Positions 59,870 through 64,000 of a stretch of DNA of 64,000 nt are shown piece by piece. Numbering within the stretch: the stretch's first letter is position 1; each line of letters begins with the position of its first letter. The notes under the pieces were generated by a model. The model worked only from the letters and a program-made list of their open reading frames with translations, searched no databases and was not told where the DNA came from. The DNA is from a candidate division FCPU426 bacterium (GTDB taxonomy: Bacteria; Oederibacteriota; JAAXVQ01; JAUVAV01): assembly GCA_040756875.1 (NCBI GenBank), contig JBFLYH010000001.1, positions 1,212,878 to 1,276,877 of the forward strand, in the 5' to 3' direction. Made by a program: the position numbers and the translations under genes.

Positions 59870-60361
59870 TCAAGCGATCTTGTTTTCCAGGTGGGTAACG
59901 CGTTTTTCCAGCTTGGCCAGGTCTTTGCCATCGGCTTTGTGGCTCAAAGCGCGCATGATTTCTTTATGGCCATCTTGCAGGCGGGTTACTTTCCGGGTGA
60001 GCACACCTTGGCCCGCCTCTAAACGAGTGACCTTTACATGAAGCTCATCTTGTCCTTCCTGCAATTTAGAAACCCGCCCTTCCAGGTTTGAAACCTGCCC
60101 CTCCACCTTTGTAACCTTCTCCTCCAGGTTCGAAACCCCCTTCTCCAAGTTCGAAACCCCCTTCTCCAAGTTCGAAACCCGCCCGTTGAGCACGGTTTGG
60201 CCTTCATGCAGAACGCCGACTTCATGCTTCAGGTCGTGGATGTCAGCCTCGACCCTGTCAAACCGGTGATTCACGACCTCAACCACGCGCTTGATATCTG
60301 ACCTAACGTCTTCTATTGCGGTCTTAAATTCACCCAATGAAATCATCCCCTCTTCGGTCAT
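59870..60361 (-). CDS. Coiled-coil heptad-repeat protein (paralog of 23897-24304)
   Basis: AAGGAGG RBS; V(S/T)(N/K/R)LE.G heptads encoded by 21-bp repeats; termini shared with 23897-24304. Confidence 0.72.
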   Translation of the reverse strand: MTEEGMISLGEFKTAIEDVRSDIKRVVEVVNHRFDRVEADIHDLKHEVGVLHEGQTVLNGRVSNLEKGVSNLEKGVSNLEEKVTKVEGQVSNLEGRVSKLQEGQDELHVKVTRLEAGQGVLTRKVTRLQDGHKEIMRALSHKADGKDLAKLEKRVTHLENKIA

Positions 60362-60471
60362 TATTGCCTCCTTATTGTGGGCAAACCAGGTTGCTCTGTC
60401 AACGAACAATTCTCGAAACATTAGACCCACGGAGGCAGTTTTCCATGCGTTCTAAAATAATGTTCCCTATA

Positions 60472-60708
60472 TCATGGCTTGCACACCTTGCACGGCCTGT
60501 AACCATTTTCCCGGGCTTGGGCTTTAGTTTTAAAGACGATTAGGTTCTTCTTTTTAATCTTTTTGGCCCAGCGGCAAGTGGAATAGTGGTATTTGTCCGA
60601 GCGGATGCTGCCGTAATAGGCGGCTAAGGAAGGGAGAGGAGTGAATAGCGTGAACAGCAGGAGTCCAACTGATAAAACAGCCAGTGCCTTTTTCCGCATC
60701 CCCATCAC
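60472..60708 (-). CDS. Small secreted Ada-like metal-binding domain protein (copy 1)
   Basis: Signal peptide plus YYGS..SDKYH...C...I...N...F.T...A...GYRPCKVCKP. Confidence 0.8.
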   Translation of the reverse strand: MMGMRKKALAVLSVGLLLFTLFTPLPSLAAYYGSIRSDKYHYSTCRWAKKIKKKNLIVFKTKAQARENGYRPCKVCKP

Positions 60709-60943: not shown

Positions 60944-61180
60944 TCATGGCTTGCACACCTTGCACGGCCTGTAACCATTTTCCCGGGCTTGGGCTTTAGT
61001 TTTAAAGACGATTAGGTTCTTCTTTTTAATCTTTTTGGCCCAGCGGCAAGTGGAATAGTGGTATTTGTCCGAGCGGATGCTGCCGTAATAGGCGGCTAAG
61101 GAAGGGAGAGGAGTGAATAGCGTGAACAGCAGGAGTCCAACTGATAAAACAGCCAGTGCCTTTTTCCGCATCCCCATCAC
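60944..61180 (-). CDS. Small secreted Ada-like metal-binding domain protein (copy 2, identical)
   Basis: Translation identical to 60472-60708. Confidence 0.75.
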   Translation of the reverse strand: MMGMRKKALAVLSVGLLLFTLFTPLPSLAAYYGSIRSDKYHYSTCRWAKKIKKKNLIVFKTKAQARENGYRPCKVCKP

Positions 61181-61879: not shown

Positions 61880-62476
61880 TTATAAAAGAAGCGTCACGAC
61901 TATTATTGGAGCGATGAATATTGCAATAATATAAAGCCAACTTGAAGACAGGTAAAAGTGGATATTGTAATAAGTAGCTTCAATCCAATTAATATTTAAA
62001 TAATTCCTATACTGAGATTTAAACTTTTGCAAATCTACTTCTTCGTGGTTTTCAGGACATGCATTTAGTTCTTGTTGGTACCTCTTTTCAATATCCACTA
62101 ATTTTTCACTTAACTGTTCAGTATCAATATCACTATATAAATTTACTTCACTTAGTATTGTGTTTATTCTTTTAGCACAATTTTCCAATCTTTCCGCTCT
62201 AACAATGTATTTTTGAGAATTTTCGATTAGGCTAAAAACAAGGATGAATATTGAAAAAACAATAGTGAAAAAATCAGTTATATCTCTATTTAAAGTTGTT
62301 ATGAATCTCGGAAGTATAGATAGTGAAATACAATAGACAGACAAAAGCGCAATTCCAGCTACTGACCAATTACTCTTACTAATTAGCCTTCGGGATGCAT
62401 TAAACCTCGATCCCATAGTTTTCCAATATTTATCCCTATATTCACTTTTTTTCGCCGCTCTCGAATCACCAGTCAT
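61880..62476 (-). CDS. SLATT-domain membrane protein (SLATT_5-like), putative defence effector
   Basis: W.T...RFNASRRL, two N-terminal TM helices, SIFILVFSL, RA..L..C, Y...L....ENH...D, C-terminal TM helix; AT-rich; GAGGTG RBS. Confidence 0.78.
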   Translation of the reverse strand: MTGDSRAAKKSEYRDKYWKTMGSRFNASRRLISKSNWSVAGIALLSVYCISLSILPRFITTLNRDITDFFTIVFSIFILVFSLIENSQKYIVRAERLENCAKRINTILSEVNLYSDIDTEQLSEKLVDIEKRYQQELNACPENHEEVDLQKFKSQYRNYLNINWIEATYYNIHFYLSSSWLYIIAIFIAPIIVVTLLL

Positions 62477-62494
62477 TTCGCACCTCTTTTAGAG

Positions 62495-62625
62495 AGGGTG
62501 GGCTACCTAATTTGACATTGCCATCTCTCTTGACAATTTCCAAGAGGTCAAGACCCTGCTCGGGTATTGATTACATCCCCCTCATTATTTTAATGAGGTC
62601 CTCAAATGAGGAGGTAGCCCACCCT
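62495..62625 (-). ncRNA. Putative RT-associated structured ncRNA between RT and SLATT
   Basis: Perfect 14-bp closing inverted repeat (62495-62508 / 62612-62625) enclosing four hairpins (62600-611, 62580-598, 62553-565, 62527-546); more GC-rich than the flanking CDS. Confidence 0.72.
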
Positions 62626-64000
62626 AGTAGATATTAGCATCATCTTTACTCAACTTCGAGAGTCTTCGCATTTTAACTAAATTAAATACATTTTCTACTT
62701 CTTGGTTCGAATACTTTCTATTATAGTTTAAATAACCAAACCTTTTCAGGTACAATAGCTTTTGACTTACAGTTAATATATTATTGTAATTCATAATATA
62801 TCCATTATTAGGTGAATATTTCGCTTCATAGAAAGATCTCGCCAGACTCTTTAATGTTTGAGGTGGCGTCCCCTCAAACTCATCCAATCTCCGAAAAAAG
62901 CTCCTTATCAGCTTGTCAATCCTGTATAAAAGTCCAACATCATTCATGCTCAGAAAATAGAATATCCACCCATATCTTTTTTTATCCGAAATGGCACCAG
63001 TTATTTTTTCATTAAGCTCTGTAATAAATACTTCATTAGGTGATTCAATAACGAATGAATAATCTTTAATTTTGTTTTTAAATCTGCTAAACATGGAGAC
63101 TATCGAATGCAAATAATTTTCAACAGTTTTTGGTCTCACTGTTATAACAGGCATTCTAAATAAGTACCCTAAATATTCAAATTGGTTTTCACTTTTGCAT
63201 ATCCGTGTCTTGCCAACCCCAGCTATATCAATTTCCAGTTTTAATTTCCGAAGCCCCTCCTCGACTTTGTTAATCAATTCATCCAGATATTCATTTTTTG
63301 TTATTACTAAAATATCATCTACATATCTAAAATAACAACATCTCGTATCATTTTGCATTTCGCGATCAAACTGTAGTAAATATATATTTGCTAGTATATT
63401 AGATATTGCTAAACCCTGTGGCACTCCTTTTGTAATTAATTTGTTTCTTTCCCTCTTATGATAACTCCTATTGACAATTGGCGTTTTCAAACCACCTTCA
63501 ATTAAGCTGAGTAGTTTTTTTGATCGAATTCTATCCTTCAATTTAGTAATTAGAATATCATTGTCTATATTAGGATAATATTCTTTAATGTCCGTCTGAT
63601 AAATCATTGTATTCCGAAGGTCAGTCGCATTCAAATAGCGAGCAATTCTATCAATATAAGTATTAGCTAACGACATTTGATTTGCTTCAGGGAATACTTC
63701 CGCCAATATCTCTTTTAGTTGATTAAGAACTATTCGATCTCGAAGAGTAGGTATAGCAACAACACGTGGTTTTTTATCCCTTCCTTTTAATTTTAAAAGT
63801 TCAAGATATGGGGCAAATTGATATTTTCCATCAACACACTTTCTTTTAATAACTGCGAATTCGTCTTGCAATCGTTTTTTGAATATTTCACCATTAATAT
63901 AATCAATACCTCTGTTCTTATCATGCCAATATTTGTGCTCAAATGCCGCTTTAAGCGTTTTTAATGAATACTTTTTTCTCAACAAGTCATTTAATCTCAT
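62624..64000 (-). CDS. Reverse transcriptase, UG/DRT-type (UG17/DRT10-like)
   Basis: KPRVVAIPTLRDRIV, TDIKEYYPNID, GVPQGLAISNILANIYL, YFRYVDD, FEYLGY, C-terminal ITG....RYGWIFYF..ND...L..ID; ATG is the last codon of the window. Confidence 0.9.
   Translation of the reverse strand: MRLNDLLRKKYSLKTLKAAFEHKYWHDKNRGIDYINGEIFKKRLQDEFAVIKRKCVDGKYQFAPYLELLKLKGRDKKPRVVAIPTLRDRIVLNQLKEILAEVFPEANQMSLANTYIDRIARYLNATDLRNTMIYQTDIKEYYPNIDNDILITKLKDRIRSKKLLSLIEGGLKTPIVNRSYHKRERNKLITKGVPQGLAISNILANIYLLQFDREMQNDTRCCYFRYVDDILVITKNEYLDELINKVEEGLRKLKLEIDIAGVGKTRICKSENQFEYLGYLFRMPVITVRPKTVENYLHSIVSMFSRFKNKIKDYSFVIESPNEVFITELNEKITGAISDKKRYGWIFYFLSMNDVGLLYRIDKLIRSFFRRLDEFEGTPPQTLKSLARSFYEAKYSPNNGYIMNYNNILTVSQKLLYLKRFGYLNYNRKYSNQEVENVFNLVKMRRLSKLSKDDANIY

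Follow-up and report, generated by a model that had tools for sequence, protein, structure and literature searches.

A probable DRT10 non-coding RNA with a predicted repeat-template loop between the reverse transcriptase and SLATT genes of a candidate division FCPU426 bacterium

We have analysed the region between a reverse transcriptase (RT) gene and a SLATT effector gene in a 64,000-nucleotide (nt) stretch of the genome of a candidate division FCPU426 bacterium (contig JBFLYH010000001.1), referred to here as the window. This region in all probability (about 0.85 by our estimate) encodes the non-coding RNA (ncRNA) of a DRT10 anti-phage system, composed of a UG17 RT and a SLATT_5 protein and arranged in the RT-RNA-SLATT order that has been named UG17-B. 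As bounded by its closing stem, the RNA is 131 nt long and occupies positions 62495..62625 of the window; it was delimited by its fold and by a covariance model and, like all features described here unless otherwise stated, lies on the minus strand. The kind of system is already in print, and the RNA is a divergent additional member of DRT10. It comes from a poorly sampled phylum, its RT is at most 48% identical to anything found, and it yields a concrete, testable product prediction, namely (TGCCAT)n primed on Tyr458 of the RT.

The two flanking genes identify the system. The RT gene (62624..64000) matches the PADLOC profile RT_UG17 with an expected value (E) of 3.7e-130 over profile positions 4-428 of 429, compared with 8.1e-42 for the runner-up model, and matches Pfam RVT_1 at 2.8e-22. 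The effector gene (61880..62476) encodes a 198-aa protein with two transmembrane segments that matches Pfam SLATT_5 at 2.1e-42 and PADLOC RTasSLATT at 5.8e-40. The two genes follow each other on the same strand with a gap of 147 nt, which is occupied by the RNA. The placement in UG17-B rests on this gene order and on 44% amino acid identity to the RT of Methylotenera mobilis.

The published framework can be summarised as follows. Tang et al. 2025 (PMC12632851) named the combination of UG17 and SLATT DRT10 and described a 137-nt RT-bound RNA upstream of SLATT, built of a central stem and four smaller stem-loops (SL), and an RT product consisting of protein-primed, tandem-repeat single-stranded DNA. 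The template is a loop after SL5 with an A-B-A' pattern, of which A-B is copied and A' re-pairs with the end of the complementary DNA (cDNA); SL5 is given as the template boundary, and a likeness to telomerase is drawn in the legend of their Fig. 4. Sanchez-Nieto et al. 2026 (10.64898/2026.04.29.721553) divide UG17 into three subtypes, and in the published description the RNA precedes SLATT in every one of them. In UG17-B the RT precedes SLATT with about 200 bp between them and putative promoters before both genes; M. mobilis is the RNA-seq example of this subtype, which also holds an RT-SLATT locus of uropathogenic E. coli linked to sbcB (10.64898/2026.04.29.721553). The label H120 is tied to the sbcB story by Mestre et al. 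2022 (PMC9226505), and by combining these separate passages we read H120 as UG17-B. The cryo-EM structure of E. coli H120 reported by Chen et al. 2026 (10.64898/2026.10.08.757509) has two RT protomers per RNA. Loop 1, which follows SL3, passes through one catalytic pocket and loop 2, which follows SL5, through the other. Product is seen on loop 2 only, with Tyr467 as primer and a 3' flanking linker of 7 nt, while loop 1 lies in the second pocket with few base-specific protein contacts.

Conservation and covariation of the RNA

A search of 5.8 billion proteins with the RT returned 476 relatives at E <= 1e-20, the closest of which are 46-48% identical. A locus search with the single RT found no relative; an alignment of 27 RTs gave 80 loci from species genomes (designated by L numbers), and one locus (G056) was added from a scan of genomes of the same phylum. 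By a scan of open reading frames (ORFs), 53 loci carry RT then SLATT on the same strand. With one of these left aside (L035, identical to L034), a closing stem scoring at least 9 is present in 46 of 52 loci, as against 25% of shuffled sequences.

Conservation of structure was assessed in two ways. An alignment of 15 RNAs made with MAFFT and folded with RNAalifold, which serves as a check free of any covariance model, gave 26 base pairs, 22 of them with compensatory change. A covariance model, R1, with 142 positions, 42 pairs and a supplied structure, was then run on the window and 81 loci (82 sources). At E <= 1 it produced 37 matches, 36 of which are on the RT strand and adjoin an RT or SLATT gene; the remaining match is on the reverse strand, with E 0.77. 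In the window R1 scores 86.3 bits (E 1.3e-20, 62498-62622), and no second match occurs in the 64 kb. In the resulting alignment 82.3% of cells are paired; shuffles give 59.6%, and sliding the pairing partners gives no more than 48.2%. Changes on both sides of a pair occur in 40 of the 42 pairs, all six helices covary and several phyla are represented; the covariation score is 0.533 versus 0.200, a value reached by none of 500 shuffles. These figures flatter the structure, since the alignment is fitted to the model and leans towards the structure supplied, and since the sequences are related rather than independent (L064, L071 and L094, for instance, hardly differ, and L038, L040, L041 and L051 resemble one another).

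A structured RNA linked to the RT had been proposed in a sequence-only reading of this DNA, which named a covariance model of the homologous intergenic regions as its check; the proposal is borne out by both R1 and the model-free alignment. The thermodynamic evidence points the same way. The minimum free energy of a 161-nt stretch around the RNA is -63.9 kcal/mol, whereas 200 dinucleotide shuffles average -41.5 +/- 4.1 (z -5.42) and none of them folds equally well. The region is AT-rich and intergenic, a setting in which hairpins might arise by chance or as a terminator or attenuator of the RT gene that yields no RNA product. We give such an origin next to no chance: it is contradicted by the fold z-score and by compensatory change across several phyla, in the model-free alignment as well as with R1, and no T-tract terminator is present.

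Three matches were obtained in Rfam, all with E >= 1.3 and far under the gathering scores, and the DRT10 RNA appears to be absent from Rfam 15. Published covariance models work within UG17 subtypes only (10.64898/2026.04.29.721553); R1 also matches a locus with the SLATT-then-RT order, from Paenibacillus (L110:1233-1361, E 0.0047). This match lies just upstream of SLATT, and its loop contains a GTAA..GTAA repeat with a period of 9.

Fold of the RNA

The closing, or basal, stem SL1 is a perfect helix of 14 bp. Its 5' strand (62612..62625) overlaps the AG of the RT stop codon, and its 3' strand is at 62495..62508; the pair probabilities in the ensemble range from 0.46 to 1.0 and are mostly near 1.0. 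In the family SL1 corresponds to helix 1, with 94.8% of cells paired and changes on both sides in all 11 pairs. The next hairpin, SL2 (62600..62611, CCUC/GAGG), has four pairs at a probability of at least 0.996, and a fifth, A with U, at 0.0; in the corresponding family helix 2, all seven pairs change on both sides. SL3 (62580..62598) has 8 bp with probabilities of 0.76-1.0 and corresponds to helix 3, again with both-side changes in seven of seven pairs. By analogy, we infer SL3 to be the counterpart of the H120 stem-loop for which the fingers domain of one RT protomer is the docking site. The arms of SL2 and SL3 are alike in the window, and the sequence-only reading had suggested that the two hairpins could exchange register. 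This idea finds no support, as the ensemble gives the exchange a probability of about 0 and the arms of SL2 and SL3 are unlike in the homologs compared; their likeness is peculiar to the window.

Loop 1 (GGGAUGUAA, 62571..62579) follows SL3 and has an unpaired probability of 0.83-1.0; its conserved core UGUAAU extends into 62570. The hairpin after it, SL4 (62548..62570), consists of an outer helix UCAA/UUGA and an inner helix ACCC/GGGU, with pair probabilities of 0.75-0.91. The outer helix joins UCAA at 62570-62567 to the UUGA of CUUGAC (62552-62547), at 0.75-0.90, and is helix 4 of the family. Helices 4 and 5, which together make up SL4, are paired in 66.9% and 79.2% of cells and change on both sides in three of four and four of four pairs, respectively. 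SL5 (62527..62546), with probabilities of 0.88-0.91, corresponds to helix 6, in which eight of nine pairs change on both sides, and by analogy with the E. coli RNA it is the probable 5' template-boundary element. Between SL5 and the 3' strand of the basal stem lies loop 2 (62509..62526), the 18-nt template loop. An alternative helix, CUUGAC/GUCAAG, was also considered and discarded, its ensemble probability being 0.001.

This architecture confirms what had been read from the letters, namely a closing stem, four hairpins (the third of them at 62565-62553) and two linkers (62579-62566 and 62526-62509), all on the minus strand; CUUGAC (62552-62547), between the third and fourth hairpins, had been left out. 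The omission matters for the first linker. Since UCAA pairs with UUGA, this linker has about 9 free nt, and the AAU-C-AAU repeat noted there is probably paired over half its length.

By eye, two parts of the RNA resemble each other in the window and in the cyanobacterial RNAs (L032-L037): SL3 with loop 1 (62598-62566) and SL5 with loop 2 (62548-62509). Both start with ACCUC... and end with GG or AG followed by (G)AUG or UGG. Such a twofold likeness would suit an RNA bound by two equivalent RT protomers. A column-wise measure of twofold symmetry over 35 RNAs, for which the choice of columns was imperfect, gave 0.37 and 0.45 versus 0.28-0.41 for controls, and does not separate the two.

Loop 1 and loop 2 compared

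The two loops behave differently among the homologs. After removal of the reverse-strand match and one duplicate, 35 distinct RNAs remained for the loop counts. Mean information per column is 0.89 bits in loop 1 and 0.46 bits in loop 2. The core of loop 1, U-G-U-A..A-U, is conserved from cyanobacteria to Bacteroidota, with conservation of 0.74-0.97 in columns 121-128, and its longest direct repeat averages 2.21 versus 2.31 in shuffled loops (34 RNAs, P 0.82), so that repeats are not enriched there. In loop 2 the longest direct repeat averages 4.03 versus 3.33 +/- 0.15 (35 RNAs), a value that none of 2000 shuffles reach, and 24 of the 35 loops have an A element of at least 4 nt, where 12.8 are expected.

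Loop 2 carries the published template-loop signature at the published position. The proposal that both linkers contain repeats for telomerase-like realignment therefore divides: it stands for the second linker, where repeats are enriched at the published template site, and falls for the first, which is conserved, unenriched and partly paired. The published mechanism of DRT10 relies on a short direct repeat for realignment (PMC12632851), and for the second linker the sequence-only reading had thus arrived at it from the letters alone.

Its conserved core and the lack of repeat enrichment make loop 1 an unlikely repeat template; by analogy with H120, it probably occupies the catalytic pocket of the second protomer. 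Some copying of it might still be imagined, with the second protomer using UGUAAUCAA for a short fixed product or for repeats of AAU-C-AAU, which is present in the window loop. In H120 the second protomer does have loop 1 running across its catalytic pocket and base-paired to an incoming deoxynucleotide (dNTP), and the authors of the structure state that both pockets may be competent (10.64898/2026.10.08.757509). Nonetheless no product was resolved in that pocket, the repeat products in the published accounts (PMC12632851; 10.64898/2026.04.29.721553) all map to loop 2, the homologs show no repeat enrichment and the predicted fold has the UCAA of the repeat in a helix, and we regard copying of loop 1 as improbable. 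The core of loop 1 is conserved while the template loop drifts, and the structure has few base-specific contacts there; for these reasons loop 1 might conceivably have a second function in which its sequence is read. It could be a fixed pseudo-template, pairing with the nascent strand or the incoming nucleotide, an element that controls which of the two protomers is active, or a template for a short defined DNA. We offer this as a long shot.

Template register and predicted product

The preferred register of loop 2 has A = AUG (62524-62522), B = GCA (62521-62519) and A' = AUG (62518-62516), followed by a 3' flank UCAAAUU (62515-62509). Its geometry fits that of the family. A candidate repeat is present in 33 RNAs; in 22 of these the A element begins at loop position 2-4, and in 18 the basal stem is 5-7 nt away from A', with a mode of 6. 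In AUG-GCA-AUG, A is at position 2 and 7 nt follow A'. Together with the 7-nt 3' flank of loop 2 in the cryo-EM structure, this geometry is the basis for predicting that copying would start at about 62516, stop at SL5 after 62524 and resume by realignment on 62518-62516, to give (TGCCAT)n. By analogy with the E. coli systems, we consider this outcome somewhat better than an even bet.

The same loop could be used in another register, with CAA-UGU (62520-62515) as template and realignment on CAA at 62514-62512, giving (ACATTG)n, or in mixed registers with imprecise junctions. CAA..CAA is an exact 3-nt repeat with a period of 6 within loop 2, and imprecise repeat addition with a cryptic re-annealing site has been described for Eco1DRT10 (PMC12632851) and E3659 (10.64898/2026.04.29.721553). 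However, CAA-UGU-CAA departs from the family modes in both respects: its A element begins at position 6 rather than 2-4, and A' is followed by just 3 nt rather than 5-7. With no structured boundary 5' of CAA, the RT would presumably continue as far as SL5. This register is unlikely, though it deserves more weight than copying of loop 1.

The AUG-GCA-AUG register is part of a proposed sequence of events, each step of which is transferred from or modelled on the published systems. The RNA would probably be transcribed from its own extended -10 promoter in the last codons of the RT gene and bound by two RT protomers, one at SL3 and loop 1 and the other at SL5 and loop 2. The RT would prime on its own C-terminal Tyr458, with copying beginning at about G62516, 7 nt before the basal stem, and proceeding 5'-ward until SL5 halts the enzyme past AUG 62524-62522. 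The 3' end of the cDNA (CAT) would then melt off and re-pair with the downstream AUG at 62518-62516, each further round adding TGCCAT. The predicted product is a long single-stranded (TGCCAT)n DNA joined to protein, and build-up of this cDNA in the course of an infection would probably activate SLATT, the membrane effector.

Several points weigh against this interpretation. The A and A' elements of the window are only 3 nt long, a length reached by 28.8 of 35 shuffled loops, so that the direct repeat claimed for the second linker is indeed present but weak on its own. An imperfect 6-nt period in loop 2 (six matches and one mismatch) is less common, being reached by 3% of 5000 shuffles; the second candidate, CAA-UGU-CAA, has the same period and overlaps AUG-GCA-AUG. 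A weak 4-bp hairpin (UGGC/GUCA) is predicted within loop 2, where 8 of 18 positions have an unpaired probability of 0.06-0.28, and according to the fold model it could compete with use of the loop as a template. For the 2:1 stoichiometry, the start site and the priming we rely, by analogy, on E. coli systems known from their published text. A look through sequencing-run records found no RNA run or raw-read run containing the locus, and the RNA ends and the cDNA are predictions; one DNA run, available as contigs, may be what the assembly was made from.

Support for protein priming comes from the RT itself. Its C-terminus reads ...DDANIY, with Tyr458 encoded at 62629-62627 and the TAG stop at 62626-62624, and a Tyr or Ser is found among the last 3 residues in 76 of 82 RT ORFs. 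This agrees with the published priming residues Y444, S456 and Y467 (PMC12632851; 10.64898/2026.10.08.757509). The catalytic YVDD motif is intact, V227, D228 and D229 being invariant and Y226 nearly so among 27 homologs. Within the window the RT has 458 aa; an earlier in-frame ATG lies just past the window end, and the 467-aa frame is visible in L001.

Promoter and SLATT leader

A candidate extended -10 element, TGCTAATAT, was read from the sequence at 62631..62639, inside the last RT codons. It would start a transcript at about 62625-62623, within the first bases of the closing stem. The pattern TGnTAnnnT occurs 2-14 nt upstream of the model match in 17 of the 35 distinct homologs, compared with 2.0% of random sites in the same loci, and equivalent sites are found in L032-L037, L039, L042 and L054. 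In the cyanobacterial loci the element is intergenic; where it overlies RT codons, as in the window, the conserved codons are a confounding factor. A scan for sigma-70 sites with two hexamers gave 11 sites where 9.4 are expected, none of them at the 5' end of the RNA, and did not list TGCTAATAT.

Downstream, the closing stem ends 18 nt before the SLATT ATG (62476), and the Shine-Dalgarno region of SLATT (AAGAGGUG, 62481..62488, with GAGG at 62486-62483) begins 6 nt past the stem. The earlier observation that the closing stem ends just before the ribosome-binding site is therefore accurate, and the arrangement is common: in RT-then-SLATT loci the distance to the ATG is mostly 13-28 nt. Such spacing, with no terminator-like site between the RNA and SLATT, is what would be expected if the RNA acted mainly in cis, as a structured 5' leader controlling SLATT translation or stability, with templating secondary or absent. 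Against this, in three loci (L038, L041 and L051) the RNA comes after the RT, SLATT lies upstream, and what follows the RNA is an unrelated gene or no gene at all; no shared hairpin over the ribosome-binding site was seen by eye after the closing stem; and the E. coli RNA is a discrete species of 137-143 nt that binds the RT and can be restored in trans (PMC12632851; 10.64898/2026.04.29.721553). A mainly cis-acting role is thus very improbable. The same three loci mean that coupling of RNA folding to SLATT translation, which the sequence-only reading had raised and which may occur in the window, cannot be universal and is not a general requirement.

These three loci (L038:3367-3509, L041:3352-3493 and L051:2123-2262) have the order SLATT_5, RT, RNA, and come from assemblies labelled Proteobacteria, Thermodesulfobacteriota and Saccharibacteria, respectively. 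In each the R1 match starts at most 2 nt from the RT stop codon and none is found upstream of SLATT. The RNA of this clade stays linked to the 3' end of the RT gene.

Comparison with known systems

Like the E. coli DRT10 systems (Eco1-3DRT10 and E3659), the locus is tripartite, comprising an RT, SLATT and an RNA. In both cases the RNA measures about 130-145 nt and has four to five stem-loops enclosed by a basal stem; the template loop separates the last of these stem-loops from the 3' strand of that stem. Also shared are the A-B-A' repeat for realignment and a C-terminal Tyr or Ser as primer. The gene order differs, being RNA-SLATT-RT in those systems and RT-RNA-SLATT in the window, where the RNA starts at the RT stop codon. 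The repeat units of the E. coli systems are 9 nt and 7 nt, whereas the predicted unit in the window is 6 nt. A further difference is that R1 crosses into the SLATT-then-RT locus L110, whereas the published models are bound to their subtypes.

The resemblance to the UG17-B examples, M. mobilis JLW8 and E. coli H120, is closer, as these also have RT then SLATT with an intergenic RNA; the ncRNA of M. mobilis JLW8 is a prediction with RNA-seq support. H120 also has two loops, after SL3 and SL5, its loop 2 being 17 nt by residue numbers versus 18 nt in the window, and a Tyr near the C-terminus. With its 7-nt 3' flank, the base at the start position is a G in H120 as well as in the window (G62516). 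Unlike these examples, the window comes from a host of another phylum, in a groundwater assembly, and the module lies in a low-GC islet.

More distant likenesses are instructive. As in telomerase RNA, a short template would be copied repeatedly with realignment on a short repeat and a helix as 5' boundary; unlike telomerase, which extends chromosome ends from a DNA primer on a different scaffold, DRT10 is protein-primed, and we claim no homology between the RNAs. DRT9 (UG28) also uses protein-primed synthesis, and the DRT10 scaffold closely resembles its own (PMC12632851). DRT9, however, has a conserved poly-U template that yields poly-dA (PMC12632851), and loop 2 of the window lacks a U tract. 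In retrons, too, a structured template RNA (msr-msd) adjoins the RT in a defence system. Retron RTs differ in priming from the 2'-OH of a branching G and in making a single msDNA, whereas Tyr priming and tandem repeats are expected for the window; the 25 best PADLOC matches of the RT include no retron model, the best profile being UG17.

Three comparative points are apparently not in the published DRT10 sections that we compared: sequence conservation is a feature of loop 1 but not of loop 2, A' tends to lie 5-7 nt from the basal stem, and some RNAs stay with the 3' end of the RT while SLATT lies upstream. They leave the picture of DRT10 unchanged.

Genomic setting and neighbouring genes

The RT-RNA-SLATT module is present as a single copy in the genome. 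Its GC content over about 2.1 kb (61880-64000) is 31-36%, below the 45-63% of the flanking 5 kb, which suggests that the module was acquired horizontally. Among 99 genomes of the same phylum, matches to the UG17 profile at about 1e-130 occur only in the source genome and in G056; 22 other matches, all at 4.7e-54 or weaker and often multicopy, are taken to be other RT classes. No match to the RT was found by tblastn against phage records, and a PDB sequence search with the RT returned no DRT10 chain, the top match being Cas6-RT-Cas1 (1.2e-13).

Downstream of SLATT are two identical 78-aa ORFs (60472-60708 and 60944-61180), 472 bp apart, each with an identical overlapping ORF on the opposite strand. 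The pair represents a recent tandem duplication and encodes a small Cys-rich protein with a signal-like N-terminus. Adjacent to it, a 186-aa ORF (59870-60430) contains repeated heptad-like units, VSNLEKG and VSNLEGR, and resembles a coiled-coil protein.

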